Positions 3,480 to 34,241 are shown, numbered from the stretch's first letter. The stretch: DNA of 64,000 nucleotides from an uncultured Oscillospiraceae bacterium (GCA_902492455.1 CABULH010000001.1:143862-207861); one strand, 5' to 3'. Made by a program: numbers and translations. Notes: generated from the sequence alone by a model not told the origin.

Positions 3480-4025
3480 ATGTATTATACAGCGGTATAT
3501 CCGTCGCCCGTGGGAATGATTACGCTTGCGTGTGATGGTACTGGCAGCCATCTGGTAGGACTGTGGATAGAGGGTCAAAAATATCATGGCGAGAGTGTAC
3601 CGGAAGCTATGCTGCCCAACGGCGGCATGCCGATATTGGGGATTGCTCAAAAATGGCTGGATCGATACTTTGCAGGAAAAAGGCCGGATATAGCAGAATT
3701 GTCGTTAACGCCTATCGGCAGTGATTTCCGTCAGAAAGTATGGAGCCTCTTATGTGAGATTCCATACGGAGAAGTGATTACCTACGGCGACATTGCCAAA
3801 AAGATGGCGGTAAAAATGAAAAGAGAAACTATGTCCAGTCAGGCGATAGGCGGTGCGGTTGGACATAACCCTATATCAATTATCATCCCCTGTCATCGGG
3901 TGGTGGGCTCCAACGGCAGTCTGACAGGTTATGCTGGGGGGATTAAAACAAAGATAAAATTGCTGGAACTGGAGGGTGTGGAACCATCTCGCTTTTTTAT
4001 CCCCAAGACAGGCACAGCCTTGTAA
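3480..4025 (+). CDS. ogt: methylated-DNA--protein-cysteine methyltransferase (O6-alkylguanine alkyltransferase)
   Basis: Active-site PCHRV motif, N-terminal MGMT domain, RBS AAGGAGG 7 nt upstream of the ATG; extended -10 TGcTATAAT upstream. Confidence 0.8.
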   Translation: MYYTAVYPSPVGMITLACDGTGSHLVGLWIEGQKYHGESVPEAMLPNGGMPILGIAQKWLDRYFAGKRPDIAELSLTPIGSDFRQKVWSLLCEIPYGEVITYGDIAKKMAVKMKRETMSSQAIGGAVGHNPISIIIPCHRVVGSNGSLTGYAGGIKTKIKLLELEGVEPSRFFIPKTGTAL

Positions 4026-4443: not shown

Positions 4444-4530
4444 TGGTGCCGCTGGCGGGACTTGAACCCGCACACCGTTTCCGGCCAGGGATTTTAAGTC
4501 CCTTGTGTCTGCCGATTCCACCACAGCGGC
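4444..4530 (-). tRNA. tRNA-Leu (anticodon UAA), type II, CCA encoded
   Basis: Manual cloverleaf on the reverse complement: acceptor GCCGCUG/CAGCGGC, D-arm GUG..CAC, anticodon stem AGGGA/UCCCU with loop CUUAAAA, long variable arm, T-arm GCGGG-UUCAAGU-CCCGC, discriminator A plus CCA; 87 nt. Confidence 0.85.
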
Positions 4531-8639: not shown

Positions 8640-9974
8640 ATGAGGAGACAGATGTCGTGGGGCTTGGCTCTGCTGCTGGCGCTGGTTGTTTTAAGCGGCT
8701 GCAGCGGAGACGGGAAGGAGGCATCATCCGCATCTCATTCTACTTCTGTATCCGGCAGCGTATCCGAAAACGCTGCAACGGTTTCCACTGCTTCAACGTC
8801 TCCGGCAGAGACAACAGGCAGCGTTTGGGAAACCTCCGATGCGTCCCATGAGACCACGGGGAGTGGGACGGCGCCATCAACCAGCTCCACAACGACTACC
8901 AGTACCGTGCCGACCAGCACGACGGAAACATTCCCCCCCCTCTCCCTGGTGCAGACCCCCACGTCTCAGACGGCAGCGGTTTTCGGGCGCACCGTAATGA
9001 AGGACGGCCGCCTGCGGCTGGAGTGGAGCGGCAGCGGTTTTGCTGTGCGGGTGGCCGGAACCCAAGCGAAAATTTTCCTCAATGCCGCTGTAGAAAAGGA
9101 CGCGCAGGCACCCTATGTTCGCGTGTGGGTAGATGGAAAGGAACGAGAGACCACGGCGGTCAGCGGCACCGTCAGTATCCAATTGCACCTGGGAGCGGGA
9201 GAACATCTCATCCAATTGGTGCGTCTGTCGGAAGTGCTCACAGTGGCACCCATTCATGTGGTCTCCCTTCAGGTGTATGGGGATCGTCAAATGCCGCCGG
9301 GCTTGCTGTCTCCGCCGGTGCTTCCGCAGCGCCGGATTGAGTTTATCGGGGATTCCATTACCTGCGGTTTCGGCGTCACCGGCCAGCCATATGCCGTTAC
9401 GGGAAAACCGGGTCGTTTCCTCACCGAAGAAGAGGATGTCACCAAAACCTATGCGGGGATAACGGCTGCCTATTTTGGGGCGGACGCCCGCTACATCGCC
9501 GCTTCCGGACGGGGTGTGTGCCATAATCATACAGATGGGGGAGACAGCCTGCTGATTCCCCATCTGTTTGACTTGGCCTCGCCCGAGGATAATACAAAAT
9601 GGGATTTCTCCCTATGGCAGCCTCAGGTGGTGGTGATCAATGCCGGAACCAATGATTACCGCGGAAAAACAACGCCGACGGAAATGCGGGCGGGCGTCAA
9701 AGCATTTCTGGAACAGGTCCGCCGGACCTATCCCGATGCGGAGATCATTTGGATGTATGGCATGATGAATAAAAAGCTGGAAGAACCGCTGGTGCAGGGA
9801 ATTGAGGACTATAACATCGCACACAGCAAGAAGGTGCATTATCTTGCTGTGGCGACCCTCAGGGGAGTTCAGGAACAGGGGGCGCTGAGTCACCCCAACG
9901 TCGCTGCGCAGCGGGACCGGGCCAAACCACTGCAAGAACTGATCACGCAGCTGACCGGCTGGAAGCCGGCCTGA
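8640..9974 (+). CDS. secreted lipoprotein, SGNH/GDSL hydrolase (CE2-like acetyl-xylan esterase architecture)
   Basis: Lipobox LSGC, long Ser/Thr-rich linker, N-terminal beta-sandwich, then GDSL block IEFIGDSITCGFG and a C-terminal NAGTNDY block. Paralog of the partial gene at 63291. Confidence 0.6.
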   Translation: MRRQMSWGLALLLALVVLSGCSGDGKEASSASHSTSVSGSVSENAATVSTASTSPAETTGSVWETSDASHETTGSGTAPSTSSTTTTSTVPTSTTETFPPLSLVQTPTSQTAAVFGRTVMKDGRLRLEWSGSGFAVRVAGTQAKIFLNAAVEKDAQAPYVRVWVDGKERETTAVSGTVSIQLHLGAGEHLIQLVRLSEVLTVAPIHVVSLQVYGDRQMPPGLLSPPVLPQRRIEFIGDSITCGFGVTGQPYAVTGKPGRFLTEEEDVTKTYAGITAAYFGADARYIAASGRGVCHNHTDGGDSLLIPHLFDLASPEDNTKWDFSLWQPQVVVINAGTNDYRGKTTPTEMRAGVKAFLEQVRRTYPDAEIIWMYGMMNKKLEEPLVQGIEDYNIAHSKKVHYLAVATLRGVQEQGALSHPNVAAQRDRAKPLQELITQLTGWKPA

Positions 9975-28461: not shown

Positions 28462-28550
28462 CTTTTTTCTACTTTAAATATTACAAAAAAAGTTATACGT
28501 TTGCCGATGGGCAAACGTGAAGACACAGTCGGTGTACGGTTACACTCCCA

Positions 28551-28600
28551 CCGGCATTCTTCAAAGAGAAAATCTTCGATTTTCTCCAGCATACCAGGAT
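28551..28600 (+). repeat. direct repeat copy 1 (50 bp, contains palindrome gagaaaat-cttcg-attttctc), candidate operator
   Basis: Identical, apart from one C/T, to 28658-28707, 107 bp downstream. Confidence 0.7.
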
Positions 28601-28657
28601 AACGCTGCCACCGGAAGAATGCCAGTGCGGCGAAGCCGCAGGAGGCTGTTCAAGCCG

Positions 28658-28707
28658 ACCGGCATTCTTCAAAGAGAAAATCTTCGATTTTCTCCAGTAT
28701 ACCAGGA
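28658..28707 (+). repeat. direct repeat copy 2, candidate operator
   Basis: accggcattcttcaaagagaaaatcttcgattttctccagtataccagga. An inverted partial copy (gaagaatgcc) lies between the two copies at 28613-28622. Confidence 0.7.
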
Positions 28708-28749
28708 AAAGCGGACGAAAAGGGTGAGAAGCCTTCACGCGGCGGTAGA

Positions 28750-28779
28750 CTTTACGATTGGAAGGATACGGCTTATAAT
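28750..28779 (+). promoter_or_regulatory. candidate promoter of the WYL operon (TTTACG-17-TATAAT)
   Basis: tttacg attggaaggatacggct tataat located 25 nt upstream of RBS aggagggagg. Confidence 0.45.
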
Positions 28780-28803
28780 GATAGCAGGAGGGAGGCGCAT
28801 CAG

Positions 28804-30045
28804 GTGAGCGAATACGGAGAACTGATCAAACGATTCGATAAAATCCGGGATTACATGCGGGATTTCTATGTTTACGGCTTTATGTCGCGGGAGGATTTCC
28901 AACGCAAAAGTCTGCGTTCCTATGACGATGAAAGGCGCCGGATCGAAAGTTATCTGGGGGAATATATGGCCTTCCGTATGGAGGAAAACGGAAAGCGGAT
29001 ATTTCTGGCGGTGAATAGCGCCGACATACCGGAAAATCCCTTATACCGGGCCTTCAAAGCCAAGAGCTTCACCAAAAACGATATAACCCTTCATTTTCTC
29101 ATTCTGGATATTTTACGGGACGGCGGAGCCTTGTCTGCCGGGGATATCGCGGACAGAATCGCGGATTATCAGGATATCTTTCAGGAACCCTTTCTTCCGG
29201 ATTTGTCCACCGTTCGAGGAAAACTGGCGGAATACGAGGCTCTTGGCCTGCTGCACGGAGAGAAGCAGGGGCGAAAGCTGCTTTACAGCCTCTCTCCAAG
29301 AGAGGCGAATCCTGCTACCTTTGGAGATGCGCTGCTGTTTTTCTCCGAAATATCGCCGCTGGGGGTGGTGGGCAGTTATCTGCTGGACAAATGCGGGATA
29401 AAGAACCGGCGGCTGGGCTTCAAGCACCACTACATTATGCATGCTTTGGAAAGCGAGGTGGTGCTGGAGCTTCTGGAGGCGATGCATGCCGGGCAGACGG
29501 TGGAAATGACCCATGCGCCCTCCCGATCCCCGGAGATGCGGCGCTTGGAGGCGGTACCGCTGAAGATTTTGATCAGCGTGCAGGGGGGACGGCGGTATGC
29601 GGCAGTTTTCGAGATCCGCACAAGAAAGATAACCGCCCTGCGGCTGGATCATATCCGCAGCGTCAGCCGAAAAGCGGCGGCGCCGGATTACCCGGTGCTG
29701 CGCGACCGGCTGGAAGAGATGCTGCGGCATACCTGGGGCGTTTCTTTCGGCAACAACCGGAAGCTGCATGATCTGCAGATGACGCTGCGGATCACTCCGG
29801 AAGAGGAATACGTGTTCCAGCGCCTGCAGCGGGAGGGGCGTTTTGGCCGGTTATCCCGGCTGGATGAGGACACCTGCCTGTATGAGATTCAGGTATATGA
29901 CGTCAGAGAGATGCTGCCCTGGCTGCGGACCTTTATCGGCCGTATTCTGTCGCTGGAGTGCGATGTGCCGGAGATTGTTCAGACCTTCCGCAGAGATATG
30001 GAAGAGCTGTACGCTATGTATGGAGGGGACGAGGATGCTGTTTAG
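28804..30045 (+). CDS. WYL-domain transcriptional regulator (wHTH-WYL-WCX architecture, PafB/PafC-like), subunit 1
   Basis: N-terminal winged HTH; central WYL-like Sm fold (..RRYAAVFEIRTRKITALRLDHIRSV); C-terminal WCX-like region. GTG start with strong RBS. Confidence 0.6.
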   Translation: MSEYGELIKRFDKIRDYMRDFYVYGFMSREDFQRKSLRSYDDERRRIESYLGEYMAFRMEENGKRIFLAVNSADIPENPLYRAFKAKSFTKNDITLHFLILDILRDGGALSAGDIADRIADYQDIFQEPFLPDLSTVRGKLAEYEALGLLHGEKQGRKLLYSLSPREANPATFGDALLFFSEISPLGVVGSYLLDKCGIKNRRLGFKHHYIMHALESEVVLELLEAMHAGQTVEMTHAPSRSPEMRRLEAVPLKILISVQGGRRYAAVFEIRTRKITALRLDHIRSVSRKAAAPDYPVLRDRLEEMLRHTWGVSFGNNRKLHDLQMTLRITPEEEYVFQRLQREGRFGRLSRLDEDTCLYEIQVYDVREMLPWLRTFIGRILSLECDVPEIVQTFRRDMEELYAMYGGDEDAV

Positions 30046-30943
30046 CGAGATTTACAGCGCCTATTATCAAGCGGCGGCAGGCTTGATCAACGCGGCGATC
30101 AGCGGGGAACTGACGGCAAAAAACGCGGAAGAGCTGATCGCTTCCAGGGCCTTTCGGGAGAGCTTCGTCTATATTCTCGACGCTATCCGCCGGGAGGATT
30201 GGAAAATTATCACCCGGGATTTCCGCACGTCCCTCCGGTACCCTCCACAGACGCCCCTTTCCACACTGGAGCTGCGGTTTCTCAAGGCGATAACCCTGGA
30301 CGACCGGTTTCGCTTGCTATATGACGGGGAGCCACAGGGGCTGGACGGAGTGGAGCCGCTTTTTACACCGGCGAATTTTCATTTCTTCGACCTCATCAGC
30401 GACGGGGACCCCTATACGGATGCTGCCTATAGGAATCATTTCCGCACGGTGTGGAAGGCGCTGAAGGAAGAGCGCCGCCTGCGGATATCCTTCCGGGACG
30501 GTAAGTGCCGGGATCACACCGGTATTTACACGCCGCGCAAGCTGGAATATTCGGAAAAGGATGACAAATTCCGCCTTTTATGCCAAGGGAGATATCGGCT
30601 GGACATCATCAATCTGGCCCGTATCCGTGGCTGCGAAATGTTGGAAGCATTTGACGAAGAAGTGCTGCCGCCGCTGCGCCGCCGGACGGAGCGGGTGCTG
30701 ATTCGGATACGAGATCAGCGCAACGCATTGGAGCGGTGTATGCTGGGCTTTGCCGACTACGCTAAGGAAACCCGGCAGACGGGGAAGGACGAATATGAGA
30801 TGGAACTCACCTATTATAAAAGCGATGAGACGGAGGTGCTGATTCGGGTGCTGTCTTTTGGCCCTTTGGTGCGAGTGTTGGCACCGGATGGATTCATTGA
30901 GCTGATTCGGGAACGGCTGGACAAACAGCGTCAATTGTGGTGA
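30034..30943 (+). CDS. WYL-domain protein, subunit 2 (translationally coupled)
   Basis: WYL signature KFRLLCQGRYRLDIINLARI and a C-terminal WCX-like region; start MLFSEIY overlaps the upstream stop by 11 nt. Confidence 0.6.
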
Positions 30944-30944
30944 T

Positions 30945-31004
30945 GCGAAGAGAGGAAGGGGGAACCGCCGGCGGTTCCCCCTTCCTCTCTTCGCAGCTTT
31001 TTTT
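30945..31004 (+). terminator. very strong intrinsic terminator: 50-nt perfect palindrome (25-bp stem) plus T9
   Basis: gcgaagagaggaagggggaaccgcc|ggcggttcccccttcctctcttcgc followed by agcttttttttt, directly after the WYL2 stop. Confidence 0.7.
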
Positions 31005-31058
31005 CCATGATAAAGGGAAGATTTTCCTGTATAGTAAAGCCTGCAAAGCCGCTTTGCA

Positions 31059-31149
31059 GGGAACTGCCGGTTCCGGCGGTGCACGGGGCGCTGCCGAAGT
31101 GCATGCCGGCGGCTATGCGAAAATTGGGGTTCGAGTCCCCAGCAGTCCT
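31059..31149 (+). ncRNA. tRNA-like element (canonical T-arm + acceptor-like helix) inside a ~400-nt structured non-coding leader; class unknown (possibly Y-RNA-like tRNA mimic)
   Basis: T-arm UGGGG-UUCGAGU-CCCCA at 31125-31141, then GCAGUCC, which can pair with GGAACUGC at 31059-31066 (one bulged A). No canonical anticodon arm or D-arm. Region 31005-31409 has no credible ORF. Confidence 0.3.
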
Positions 31150-31451
31150 TTCGAGACTGCCCAGGGTTTGGTTTGCGGGTGAAATTCCCGCCCTCTTAAG
31201 GGTGTTCCGCACCCATTTGTAAAAGATGGGGAGGCACGCCGCTGAGCCTGCCGACAGGCAAGCATAATGACTGCCCTGCCGGAAAGCGGATACCGGCGGC
31301 CGGTTTCCCCTGCCAAAGCATAAGCTTCCGCAGGGGAGAACCGCCGTCTGAAGCCTTCCGCCGCAATCAGCATGCGGCTTGACGGCGTGCAGCTTCCATC
31401 GAATGAGACATGATCATCCCGCAGCGATTAGCGGGGAAAGGAATGATGGAT

Positions 31452-32549
31452 ATGAAAATCATCGTAAAAGAAAACGAACGGGGTTTGCTGTTTAAGGATG
31501 GGAACTTCATTAGAATGCTGGCGCCGGGCAGGTACCGCTTTTTCCGCTCGGGCATGCGGGTGGATAAACAGGCCATCGACGGCGCATTTGATGCCAGAGG
31601 GTATGATTTATCCATATTTGCCAGGGACACGGAGCTGAAAAAGCAGCTGGCGGTGGCAGATGTTCCCGATGAGATGGCGGCGCTGCACTACATAAACGGT
31701 AAATATGCCGGCTGCCTGGTCAGCGGCCGCTACGCTTTCTGGAACATCTATGATAAGCATGAGTTCCGGCTGACGGATATGCGGGAGCCGGAGGTGGGCG
31801 AGGATATTCCCCGCTATATCTGTGACCGGATTCCCCTGGAATTGATCCGCAAGGTGGAGGTGGCTCCCTATCAGAAGGCGCTGCTGTTTGTCAATCAGAA
31901 GCTGATCAAGCTGCTGGATGAGGGCACCTACTATTTTTGGAACAACGGCGCGCGGATCGACGTAAAGCTGGCGGATACCCGGCTGCTGCAGATGGAAATC
32001 ACCGGGCAGGAGATGCTGACCCAGGATAAGGTAACTTTGCGGGTCAACTTCATCTGCCGGTACCGGATTGCCGATACCATACGGATTTTTACGGAAATCG
32101 ATGACTACGAGGAACAGATGCACGTTACGCTGCAGCTGGCCTTGCGGGAGGTCATCGGGCAATACCGGCTGGATGAGATTCTGGAAAACAAGGAGCGGAT
32201 CGCCGCATTTGCCCTGCAGCGTCTGAAAGAGCGGGAAGGGGAATTCTTTGTCGCCGTGGCCGATGCGGGCATCAAGGACATCATTCTGCCGGGGGAGATC
32301 CGCGCCATCATGAACACGGTGCTGGTGGCGGAGAAAACAGCCCAGGCAAATGTCATCACCCGGCGTGAGGAAGTGGCTTCCACCCGCAGCCTGCTGAACA
32401 CCGCCCGGCTGATGGAGGAAAACCAGACGCTGTATAAGCTCAAGGAGCTGGAATATCTGCAGAAAATCTGCGAGAATGTGGGTAGCATCTCGGTGACAGG
32501 CGGCGGGGATCTGCTGGCGCAGTTGACAAAGATACTGAAGGGAGCGTAA
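31452..32549 (+). CDS. SPFH/band-7 (stomatin/flotillin-like) domain protein, no TM segment, with degenerate N-terminal repeats
   Basis: SPFH core (..TQDKVTLRVNFICRYRIAD.., C-terminal coiled coil), N-terminal ERGLLF-like repeats. Start chosen at ATG 31452, 9 nt after GGGGAAAGGA; alternatives at 31410 and 31443. Confidence 0.65.
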   Translation: MKIIVKENERGLLFKDGNFIRMLAPGRYRFFRSGMRVDKQAIDGAFDARGYDLSIFARDTELKKQLAVADVPDEMAALHYINGKYAGCLVSGRYAFWNIYDKHEFRLTDMREPEVGEDIPRYICDRIPLELIRKVEVAPYQKALLFVNQKLIKLLDEGTYYFWNNGARIDVKLADTRLLQMEITGQEMLTQDKVTLRVNFICRYRIADTIRIFTEIDDYEEQMHVTLQLALREVIGQYRLDEILENKERIAAFALQRLKEREGEFFVAVADAGIKDIILPGEIRAIMNTVLVAEKTAQANVITRREEVASTRSLLNTARLMEENQTLYKLKELEYLQKICENVGSISVTGGGDLLAQLTKILKGA

Positions 32550-32614
32550 ACTTTTGATATTATGGATCAAAGCCTTTCTGAAGGAATGCGGTGAGGCTTT
32601 GAGAAAGGCGGCAA

Positions 32615-33820
32615 ATGATGCTGGAAATTAAGGGTCAATACAACACAGCGAAGGTTTTTACCGATAGCCTAGAAGAAGCGGCTGCCGCCCAGATCCAGCA
32701 GCTGTGCGATATGGAATACGCGGCAGGGGCCAAGATCCGCATTATGCCGGATGTCCACGCCGGCGCGGGCTGCACCATCGGCACCACTATGACCATAACC
32801 GATAAGGTGGTGCCCAATTTGGTGGGGGTGGACATCGGCTGCGGAATGGAAACGGTCCGGCTGGGGAGCCGGGAACTGGATCTGGAGAAGCTGGACGGTC
32901 TGATCCATGAGCGGATTCCCGCCGGCATGAATGTACGGGAAACGCCTCACCGCTTCAGTGAGGAGACGGAGCTGTCCTCTCTGCGGTGTTTCCGCGACAT
33001 TCATGCGGACTGGGCGCTGCGGTCTGTGGGTACCTTGGGCGGAGGGAATCACTTTATAGAAGCGGATAAAGACGATGAGGGACGGCTGTACCTGGTGGTG
33101 CATTCCGGCAGCCGTTACCTGGGCAACGAGGTGGCGAAGCTGTATCAGGAGAGAGGCTGCGCCCGGCTGAACGGCTGCGACAAGCGGACGGTACAACAGC
33201 TAATCGCCGCTTACAAGGAGGCGGGACGGGCCAGAGAGATTCAATCCGCGCTTAAGGCGCTGAAAGGCCGCGCTGCCACGGCGATTCCCCGGGAACTGGC
33301 CTATGTGGCAGACGATTTGTTTGAGGATTATATCCACGATATGCGGATTGTTCAGCAGTACGCGGCGATCAACCGCCGGGCCATCGCGGCGGATATTCTG
33401 GATGGTATGGGAATGGAGGCGGAGGAGGCATTCACCACCATCCATAACTATATCGACACCGATGCCATGATTCTGCGCAAGGGCGCTGTTTCCGCGAAAA
33501 AGGGGGAGCGGCTGCTGATTCCCATCAATATGCGGGACGGCAGCCTGCTCTGTATCGGTCGGGGAAATGAGGACTGGAACTGCTCCGCGCCTCATGGCGC
33601 AGGGCGGAGAATGAGCCGTGCGGCGGCCAAAAAAACCTTTACCGTGGAGGAGTTCCAGCGGCAGATGGCAGCGGTCTATTCCACCTCTGTGAACGGGGAG
33701 ACCTTGGATGAATGCCCCATGGCCTATAAGGATATGGAGGAGATTGTACAAGCCATCACACCAACGGCGGAGATCGTTGGAATCATCAGACCTGTTTACA
33801 ATTTCAAGGCGGGTGAATAA
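32615..33820 (+). CDS. rtcB: RNA-splicing ligase RtcB (bacterial ~400-aa form)
   Basis: MPDVHAGAGCTIG, GGGNHFIE and TTIHNYID metal/GTP motifs. 65-nt gap from the SPFH gene suggests an operon. Confidence 0.85.
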   Translation: MMLEIKGQYNTAKVFTDSLEEAAAAQIQQLCDMEYAAGAKIRIMPDVHAGAGCTIGTTMTITDKVVPNLVGVDIGCGMETVRLGSRELDLEKLDGLIHERIPAGMNVRETPHRFSEETELSSLRCFRDIHADWALRSVGTLGGGNHFIEADKDDEGRLYLVVHSGSRYLGNEVAKLYQERGCARLNGCDKRTVQQLIAAYKEAGRAREIQSALKALKGRAATAIPRELAYVADDLFEDYIHDMRIVQQYAAINRRAIAADILDGMGMEAEEAFTTIHNYIDTDAMILRKGAVSAKKGERLLIPINMRDGSLLCIGRGNEDWNCSAPHGAGRRMSRAAAKKTFTVEEFQRQMAAVYSTSVNGETLDECPMAYKDMEEIVQAITPTAEIVGIIRPVYNFKAGE

Positions 33821-33849
33821 AAGGGCGCGCCGTATCTGCGCCTCTCTTT

Positions 33850-33904
33850 CCGCAGCAGAATACCGGTCCCTCAACCAAAATGAGGGACCGGTATTCTGCT
33901 GCGG
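33850..33904. terminator. bidirectional terminator (24-bp stem)
   Basis: ccgcagcagaataccggtccctca-accaaaa-tgagggaccggtattctgctgcgg between rtcB (+) and the XRE gene (-). Confidence 0.6.
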
Positions 33905-33911
33905 ATTTGAT

Positions 33912-34241
33912 TTACTGCTTATCCTGGAGTTCGGCCAGCTTACGGATTTGATCCAGAGCGTAATCCTGGAATTCGGGACGCAAAGAACGGAAGATGCGCA
34001 AAGCCTCATCCAACTTGACCGTATCGGCCGGGCTGCTGTCGAACATCTCTCCTTCGCCGGTTTGCAGCCAATGCTCGTTCACTCCATACAGCTGACAGAT
34101 ATGGCGCAGTAAAAGCTCCTTCGGCTGGACACGGTCATATTCCAAGTTGCTGATGACGTCCCGACTGACCCCCAGCCTCTCGCCGAATTCTCTTTGAGAC
34201 AGCTTGAACGCCTCGCGCACGGCTTTGATTCGATTGGACAA
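33912..34241 (-). CDS. XRE-family HTH transcriptional regulator (109 aa)
   Basis: HTH_XRE (FKLSQREFGERLGVSRDVISNLEYDR). TTG start with RBS AAGGAGGT. Confidence 0.7.
   Translation of the reverse strand: MSNRIKAVREAFKLSQREFGERLGVSRDVISNLEYDRVQPKELLLRHICQLYGVNEHWLQTGEGEMFDSSPADTVKLDEALRIFRSLRPEFQDYALDQIRKLAELQDKQ

Follow-up and report, generated by a model that had tools for sequence, protein, structure and literature searches.

A candidate RNA-repair locus of Clostridia that combines a WYL regulator pair, a large structured RNA with a tRNA-like module, a Band-7 protein, and RtcB

The closest described relatives of the locus analyzed here come from computational work. According to a secondary source (bioRxiv 10.1101/312249), Burroughs and Aravind predicted in 2016 that RtcB occurs beside a Band-7 protein and a tRNA-like noncoding RNA (ncRNA), the b7a-tRNA ("band 7-associated tRNA"), which that source describes as strongly resembling authentic tRNA and as being without experimental validation. 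Iyer et al. (2022; PMC9503650) give the same work as their reference for the WYL transcription factors of conflict and repair systems; in their account, CARF/WYL factors control RNA-repair pathways and may sense RNA fragments of the kind that activates RtcR. A 2026 paper (PMC13086221) places a Band-7 gene within the rtc locus of P. aeruginosa. In the Salmonella rsr-yrlBA-rtcBA operon, the Y RNAs are cotranscribed yet act as ribonucleoproteins (RNPs) (bioRxiv 10.1101/312249; PMC7790460); tRNA fragments with cyclic-phosphate ends activate RtcR (PMC7790460), and the YrlA Y RNA has the stem-loop order (V)-T-acceptor-like-D (PMC4201824). Here, we describe a locus within 64,000 nucleotides (nt) of DNA from an uncultured Oscillospiraceae bacterium (GCA_902492455.1 CABULH010000001.1:143862-207861; this whole stretch is called the window), in which two WYL-domain regulators precede a structured RNA, a Band-7/SPFH protein, and the RNA ligase RtcB. 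We consider it probable, if far from certain, that the locus is a Band-7/tRNA-like-RNA/RtcB RNA-repair operon governed in Clostridia by a WYL pair instead of the CARF/sigma-54 regulator RtcR.

The core of this locus was already predicted in 2016, and the locus belongs to a computationally known kind. A preliminary description of the window had taken the neighborhood to be undescribed, a view that does not hold against the sources named above, which covers both the Band-7/b7a-tRNA/RtcB link (bioRxiv 10.1101/312249) and WYL factors in RNA repair (PMC9503650). Full-text literature searches returned no further report of this combination of WYL, RNA, Band-7, and RtcB, and any novelty may lie in the complete architecture of the RNA and the regulator pair. 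The locus shares with the b7a-tRNA systems the placement of RtcB beside Band-7 and a tRNA-like RNA, with Band-7 seen as a Ro60-like scaffold, and the theme of WYL or CARF factors as regulators of RNA repair; as judged from the secondary description alone, it differs in that the tRNA mimic has a closed acceptor and is embedded in an RNA of about 340 nt with three domains. Likeness to the Salmonella Ro60 (Rsr)-YrlA/YrlB-RtcB operon lies in an ncRNA cotranscribed within the ligase operon and presumed to be a member of an RNP, in a stem-loop order identical to that of YrlA, and in a ligand-sensing transcription factor encoded upstream (RtcR in Salmonella). In contrast to that operon, the present locus has no TROVE/Ro60, RtcA, RtcR, or sigma-54 promoter, Band-7 taking the place of Ro60 and two WYL proteins that of RtcR; no Ro60/TROVE gene lies within about 4 kilobases (kb) on the same strand. 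Unlike YrlA, the RNA lacks a Ro-binding stem and is extended by a 5' and a 3' domain, and Rfam gave no Y-RNA-type match. As the preliminary description had observed, Ro60, RtcR, RtcA, and archease are not encoded among the locus genes, and its analogy of WYL for RtcR, Band-7 for Ro60, and tRNA-like RNA for Y RNA is reasonable. None of the outcomes that the preliminary description had named as contrary to it was obtained.

From 28.5 to 33.9 kb, the plus strand carries repeats, WYL1, WYL2, a terminator, a noncoding RNA region, Band-7, rtcB, and a hairpin, as follows:

28547-28602 and 28655-28710, plus strand: two 56-nt direct repeats, 95% identical, inside the 342-nt intergenic region 5' of WYL1
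28751-28779, plus strand: predicted promoter of the WYL1-WYL2 genes, TTTACG-17-TATAAT (consensus match only, 10 of 12 positions)
28804-30045, plus strand: WYL1, 413 amino acids (WYL profile and fold match)
30035-30943, plus strand: WYL2, 302 amino acids (WYL profile and fold match)
30944-31004, plus strand: intrinsic terminator of the regulator genes, a perfect 26-base-pair (bp) hairpin followed by seven T residues
30988-31014, plus strand: conserved DNA box, consensus GTTCGCA[AG]C-T7-CCGTGA(T/A)A (alignment of intergenic regions)
31007-31035, plus strand: sigma-A-type promoter of the RNA-Band7-RtcB operon, ATGATA-17-TATAGT (position and sequence conserved; predicted start)
31040-31119, plus strand: 5' domain of the RNA (permutation test for P1/P2; pairing against slid controls for P3/P4)
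31125-31191, plus strand: tRNA-like module of the RNA (covariance model R1, covariation)
31192-31258, plus strand: variable linker of the RNA, poorly conserved in alignments, with hairpins that differ by lineage
31259-31380, plus strand: 3' domain of the RNA (MAFFT alignment A6, model R2)
31452-32549, plus strand: Band-7/SPFH (stomatin-like) protein, 365 amino acids (Pfam Band_7, 8e-26)
32615-33820, plus strand: RtcB RNA ligase, 401 amino acids (Pfam RtcB, 2.7e-62)
33850-33905, no strand: likely bidirectional terminator of the convergent rtcB and XRE genes, a 23-bp hairpin lying between them (sequence reading)

A scan with a Band-7 profile, one genome being taken per species, yielded 80 loci, all in Bacillota; most belong to Oscillospiraceae, Lachnospiraceae, and Acutalibacteraceae, and Dielma, Robinsoniella, and Oscillibacter valericigenes are also represented. 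When neighbors were counted by tblastn with the window proteins, the WYL pair was directly upstream in 44 of the 55 loci with enough flank (and, with an insertion, in two more), RtcB was downstream of Band-7 in 50 of 68, and the complete set was present in 31 of 51. The neighborhood is conserved well beyond the strain in which it was noticed. The outer flanks of the loci are unrelated to each other. Aminipila terrae and Oscillibacter valericigenes, both with complete genomes, show the same order, and closer relatives found by exact protein look-up keep the order WYL-WYL-RNA-Band7-RtcB. The WYL1 and WYL2 families are constantly paired across loci, and these two families and Band-7 have similar homologue counts, each in the thousands. 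A gene for RlaP (PF10127), a ligase-associated Pol-beta nucleotidyltransferase, follows rtcB in Aminipila terrae (L085, CP047591; 7358-8116) and takes the place of RtcB in locus L066 (7158-7907); RlaP ties the module to other RNA-repair components. In two loci (L033 and L072), an insertion of 1.7 to 2.7 kb separates the WYL pair from the RNA, and in L042 (Faecousia) a cluster of five tRNA genes (8968-9459) lies about 600 nt downstream of rtcB.

The proteins of the operon are readily assigned, and the SPFH and RtcB identities proposed earlier are borne out by the Pfam matches given above. The Band-7 family comprises more than 5,800 homologues, typically of 365 amino acids (more than 100 at that length). 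Since homologues are almost all of this length, the start is most likely the ATG at 31452, behind GGGGAAAGGA, and not 31410. The noncoding region of 400 nt at 31005-31409 that had been delineated earlier is real, but with the later start the noncoding stretch comes to about 506 nt; the approximately 450 nt that follow the regulator terminator contain no credible open reading frame. Band-7, a predicted soluble protein, has a beta-rich region at its N terminus, then the SPFH domain, and a helix at its C terminus; reading its sequence reveals no membrane segment. A profile search of the PDB matched stomatin at 4e-23, which points to a relationship with the ring- and cage-forming stomatins. The rtcB gene follows on the same strand after a gap of 65 nt. 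In translation, the active-site signature of RtcB is intact (DIGCGM, GGGNHF, HSGSR, HNY, and PHGAGR) and aligns with solved RtcB structures, and the predicted enzyme thus retains its catalytic residues. A phage origin was not supported: IMG/VR viral contigs contained no relatives of this Band-7 subfamily, and PADLOC had no match for Band-7 or RtcB.

Both regulators are WYL-domain proteins, with a WYL domain (an Sm-like SH3 barrel) followed by WCX. The PADLOC WYL profile matched WYL1 at E=2e-14 and WYL2 at E=1.1e-9 over WYL and WCX together, in agreement with the preliminary assignment. Pfam matches fell under the gathering score (WYL at 0.0027 and WCX at 0.0069 in WYL1; WCX at 3.2e-4 in WYL2); PF13280 is present in most WYL1 homologues, and NCBI names both families "WYL domain-containing protein." Sequence-only PDB searches with either protein were uninformative, and fold comparison was needed. 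AlphaFold (AF2) models had predicted local distance difference test (pLDDT) scores of 86.8 for WYL2 and 69.9 overall for WYL1, in which residues 220 to 410 scored high. In Foldseek comparisons with the PDB, WYL1 matched DriD (4e-12) and PafBC (6e-10), and WYL2 matched DriD, PafBC, BrxR, and CapW (3e-8 to 1e-5); the top fold matches of both were WYL transcription factors only (DriD, PafBC, CapW, and BrxR; E=4e-12 to 1e-5, probability 1.0), and the DriD and CapW structures concerned were solved bound to single-stranded DNA. In WYL1, a poorly modeled N-terminal segment of about 95 amino acids precedes an ArsR-like winged helix (about residues 96 to 165) that resembles the ArsR/SmtB type, with matches to SmtB, NmtR, and MecI, and then WYL (about 212 to 290) and WCX (about 320 to 405). 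WYL2, whose family typically has about 302 amino acids, begins with a helical domain of about 125 amino acids before WYL and WCX; no helix-turn-helix (HTH) was detected in it by Pfam, NCBIfam, or PDB profile, and its N-terminal helices aligned only loosely with full-length DriD in Foldseek.

PafBC, DriD, CapW, and BrxR are regulators of stress or defense regulons that respond to single-stranded nucleic acid. The present pair shares with them the WYL-WCX architecture and fold, to which WYL1 adds a winged HTH, and with pafB/pafC the arrangement of two adjacent paralogous genes. The start codon of WYL2 (ATG at 30035, rather than a position further downstream) lies inside WYL1, and the two genes overlap by 11 nt that include the WYL1 stop codon (TAG, 30043-30045), which makes translational coupling plausible. 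The two proteins differ from those factors in the extra N-terminal segment of WYL1 and in the lack of a recognizable HTH in WYL2; sequence identity is only 11 to 19%, and the target here would be an RNA-repair operon. The earlier label of a PafB/PafC-like HTH-WYL-WCX pair is correct for the WYL and WCX domains of both proteins and for the winged helix of WYL1, whereas the extra N terminus of WYL1 and the undetectable HTH of WYL2 depart from it, so that it may serve as a fair analogy and is inexact as a description.

The noncoding stretch is best read as one large structured RNA, every domain of which is backed by covariation. The RNA, of about 340 nt, is predicted to begin at the conserved sigma-A-type promoter and to have three domains, in line with the earlier proposal that a partly tRNA-like structured RNA separates the regulators from the SPFH-rtcB operon. 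Its 5' domain is closed by helices P1 (31042-45 with 31116-19) and P2 (31047-53 with 31108-14), which enclose hairpins P3 (31060-74) and P4 (31077-31107, highly conserved). Strands of P1/P2 from the same locus paired at -13.9 kcal/mol versus -10.7 kcal/mol for strands from other loci, a value reached in none of 5,000 permutations, and compensatory swaps are seen among loci (e.g., GCAAG/CTTGC, GCAGG/CCTGC, and GTAAT/ATTAC). In P3 and P4, 95.8% of cells are paired, against 25 to 58% in slid controls. A local hairpin at 31040-31060 was considered in place of P1/P2 and is disfavored, because it is not kept across loci and the long-range helices covary. Within P4, GCCGAAG at 31093-31099 fits the YrlA motif GNCGAAN0-1G that is thought to contact Ro60; the fit is probably coincidental, since the family sequence varies at this position (CCAAAG, CCGACG, and others).

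The tRNA-like module consists of a T arm (TGGGG-UUCGAGU-CCCCA, 31125-31141), a closed acceptor-like hairpin (GCAGUC-CUUUCGA-GACUGC, 31142-60), a D-like hairpin (CCA-GGGUU-UGG, 31161-71), and a fourth helix (GCGGG-TGAAATT-CCCGC, 31175-91). Across 42 aligned loci, 86.7% of cells are paired versus 31 to 45% when slid, and cells with changes on both sides number 100 versus 18 to 35. R1, the covariance model built from this alignment, detects the module with E below 1e-6 in about 68 of 80 loci; for the window, where it scores 15 bits (E=5e-7 over a 601-nt region), each of the four helices is aligned. The T loop UUCGAAU and the GG of the D-like loop are nearly invariant in the family, and changes in the T stem are compensatory. 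Of the tRNA-like element in the preliminary description, the T-arm hairpin (given there as TGGGG-TTCGAGT-CCCCA) is thus conserved family-wide, whereas neither ARAGORN nor the Rfam tRNA model called a tRNA in the intergenic region of the window; with relaxed settings, ARAGORN made calls in 17 of 81 related regions, with inconsistent anticodons. A canonical tRNA was rejected, as the acceptor-like helix is a closed hairpin and the window has no canonical anticodon arm. A tRNA pseudogene or a chance T-loop match was rejected as well, given that the hairpin and three more helices are kept with compensatory changes in about 68 loci. MAFFT placed helix 4 of the window as the counterpart of the family T arm, a placement overruled by closer relatives and by the covariance model.

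In about 38% of loci, additional hairpins precede the T arm, among them a second T-arm-like one, GGGGUUCAACUCCCC (L002, L003, L011-L013, L015, L021, L027, L029, L030, L049, L056, L061, L066-L068, and L075-L078), which often stands after a stem resembling an anticodon stem and before a hairpin with a 7-nt loop of the CUGUCAA type. The arrangement resembles the insertion of another partial tRNA mimic. Locus L072 has a second, weak R1 match (3865-3938) and carries the promoter box twice, the additional copy immediately downstream of WYL2.

Of all RNA features of the system, the 3' domain is the most constant. It forms an unbranched 35-bp rod made of four stacked helices and internal loops; the loop GGAUACCG (31290-31297) shows almost no variation, and CUUCCGC, CUGAAG, and GCCGC are also conserved. 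In A6, an alignment made by MAFFT from sequence alone, 87.1% of cells are paired versus 38 to 44% when slid, 32 of the 35 pairs change on both sides, and covariation is 0.572, against at most 0.163 in slid controls. Model R2 found exactly one match in 82 of 85 sources (77.6 bits and E=7e-17 in the window), and over these 82 sequences 90.4% of cells are paired. From the end of this domain to the Band-7 ATG there are usually 35 to 50 nt; insertions of 130 to 690 nt separate the RNA from Band-7 in seven loci (L016, L024, L041, L044, L056, L063, and L070). Rfam scans of the window and 20 loci, by gathering score and by E value, found no family that reaches threshold anywhere in the RNA, the cis-regulatory families included. 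One sub-threshold Rfam tRNA alignment depended on a repeated GTATGC word and was dismissed; the other matches in these scans were hairpin artifacts, true tRNAs, and a T-arm fragment of tmRNA, and E-value matches to SNORA69 and several microRNA families (33820-33905 and 30932-31012) are artifacts of the two long terminator hairpins. An attenuating leader of the riboswitch or T-box type was not found, as the plus strand between 31005 and 31451 has no terminator-like site and no terminator/antiterminator pair.

Transcription of the RNA operon would start from a promoter of the sigma-70/sigma-A type, not sigma-54, with the family consensus GTGA(A/T)A-17-TGGTAAAAT. The conserved box abuts and overlaps its -35 hexamer, with column identity of at least 90% in 57 aligned intergenic regions; there is one copy per locus in about 70 of 81 sources, and elsewhere the box occurs at background frequency. 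In most loci, the WYL2 terminator takes its 3' arm and T run from the box, which is retained even without the partner arm of the hairpin (e.g., in L022 and L026). Its conservation goes far beyond what a terminator or promoter needs, and we regard it as a candidate binding site of the WYL regulators or an UP-like element. An operator common to the WYL1 and RNA promoters was not supported, since shared words are only weakly enriched and there is no second box copy. The direct repeats noticed earlier upstream of WYL1 are real (two exact 35-mers versus none expected), and each contains the near-palindrome GAGAAAATC-TTC-GATTTTCTC. The repeat pattern is restricted to the lineage of the window and missing upstream of WYL1 in other loci; the repeats may be a lineage-specific operator, and their membership in the system is uncertain. 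One 10-mer of the repeats, GAAGATTTTC, recurs at 31018-31027, in the spacer between -35 and -10 of the RNA promoter, and in some other loci this spacer contains a palindrome similar to GGAAA-N-TTTCC.

Taken as a WYL-governed RNA-repair operon, the locus could work as follows. WYL1 and WYL2 would act as a PafBC-like heterodimer bound to the conserved box at about -40 to -60; because only WYL1 has a clear HTH and the box is non-palindromic, an asymmetric heterodimer beside the -35 hexamer is the simplest model. By analogy with DriD, PafBC, and CapW, which respond to single-stranded nucleic acid, and with RtcR, which responds to tRNA fragments, the binding of fragments of damaged nucleic acid to the WYL domains would switch the operon on. 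The RNA would be a stable cofactor, possibly processed from the operon transcript like the Y RNAs of Salmonella rsr-yrlBA-rtcBA, with one domain docking on an oligomeric Band-7 ring or cage and the tRNA-like module recruiting or positioning RtcB or its tRNA or rRNA substrates. RtcB would then reseal ends made by ribotoxins, joining 2',3'-cyclic phosphate or 3'-phosphate to 5'-OH, and the RNA, Band-7, and RtcB would together make up a repair particle comparable with Ro60-Y RNA-RtcB. In the vault particle, major vault protein (MVP), which has an SPFH-like shoulder domain, is found with the TROVE protein TEP1 and vault RNA. This pairing of an SPFH-fold oligomer with a small structured RNA and a Ro-like protein parallels the proposed Band-7/RNA particle; unlike the system considered here, the vault is eukaryotic and has no ligase, and the homology considered here is that of the SPFH fold. 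A more detailed version, which we put forward only tentatively and think rather doubtful as a whole, holds that the RNA is more than the predicted b7a-tRNA and represents a hitherto undefined class (about 340 nt, three domains, once per locus) in which the 3' rod with its GGAUACCG loop is a Band-7-binding or regulatory core and the tRNA mimic a sentinel or adaptor, with fragments of this RNA or of tRNAs as the inducer in a damage-sensing circuit that includes an asymmetric WYL heterodimer.

Several points weigh against the WYL-governed repair operon. Its mechanism, including the dimerization of WYL1 with WYL2 and their mode of action as activator or repressor, is inferred from sequence and comparison. 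The components are separable, as 18 of 68 loci have no RtcB beside Band-7 and 9 to 11 of 55 have no adjacent WYL pair; the tRNA-like module of the window reaches just 15 bits with the model of its own family; and a search upstream of WYL1 found no copy of the conserved box there. The distance of 35 to 50 nt between the 3' domain and the Band-7 start, seen in most of the 82 loci, also fits a cis-acting leader. It is conceivable, though unlikely, that the RNA is mainly such a 5' leader of the Band-7/rtcB mRNA, through which a protein or ligand, or feedback by Band-7 or RtcB, controls translation or stability; the absence of a terminator between RNA and Band-7 and the recurrence of a short CCU...AGG pairing beside the Shine-Dalgarno sequence are consistent with this. 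A leader with this role is harder to reconcile with the loci in which the RNA is kept despite insertions of up to 690 nt before Band-7, with the lack of a terminator/antiterminator pair, and with the retention of T and D loops as in stable tRNA mimics, and the Salmonella Y RNAs show that cotranscription does not prevent an RNA from working as an RNP.

Less probable still is that the tRNA-like RNA serves as a decoy or sentinel for ribotoxins, such as anticodon nucleases and colicin-like or toxin-antitoxin RNases, whose cleavage fragments would be the WYL ligand until RtcB reseals the RNA and resets the switch. The binding of single-stranded nucleic acids by WYL proteins in the DriD and CapW structures, the activation of RtcR by tRNA fragments, and the additional T-arm-like and anticodon-like hairpins in about 38% of loci, as if targets were being multiplied, would suit a decoy, but the idea is purely inferential: nothing ties the RNA to cleavage, the acceptor-like hairpin is closed, and the window offers no canonical anticodon arm. 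We give very little credence to the view that the WYL pair is a mere neighbor that regulates itself or unrelated genes while the Band-7/rtcB operon is expressed constitutively from its own promoter. That the RNA promoter has recognizable -35 and -10 elements, that a terminator separates the two units, that no operator common to both promoters was found, and that the pair is missing from some loci would all accord with it; against it stand the adjacency, order, and orientation held in 44 of 55 loci despite wholly different outer flanks, the similar homologue counts of the three protein families, and the conservation of the box at -35 beyond the needs of terminator and promoter.

Outside the module, the window neighbors are an XRE regulator, an amidohydrolase, a glycoside hydrolase (GH20), and a peptidase-like protein. 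The small XRE/HTH_19 regulator (33912-34241, minus strand) converges on rtcB and is also found in same-species contigs (L081-L083); elsewhere, it does not belong to the conserved module. The sole canonical tRNA gene of the window encodes tRNA-Leu with the anticodon UAA (4444-4530, minus strand).

Bacterial RtcB systems are widespread, and their substrates, cofactors, and signals are largely obscure outside the Proteobacterial RtcR/Ro60 branch. The branch described here is common in gut and environmental Clostridia and pairs RtcB with an SPFH protein that is seemingly soluble and with a large predicted structured RNA for which Rfam has no entry. Our analysis yields coordinates, structures backed by covariation, and a candidate operator, and it points to Aminipila terrae and Oscillibacter valericigenes as cultured hosts with complete genomes. 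It thereby makes testable which ligand WYL regulators may sense in RNA repair, what role a cytoplasmic SPFH oligomer may play together with an RNA, and whether tRNA mimicry might be a general requirement for RtcB-based repair.

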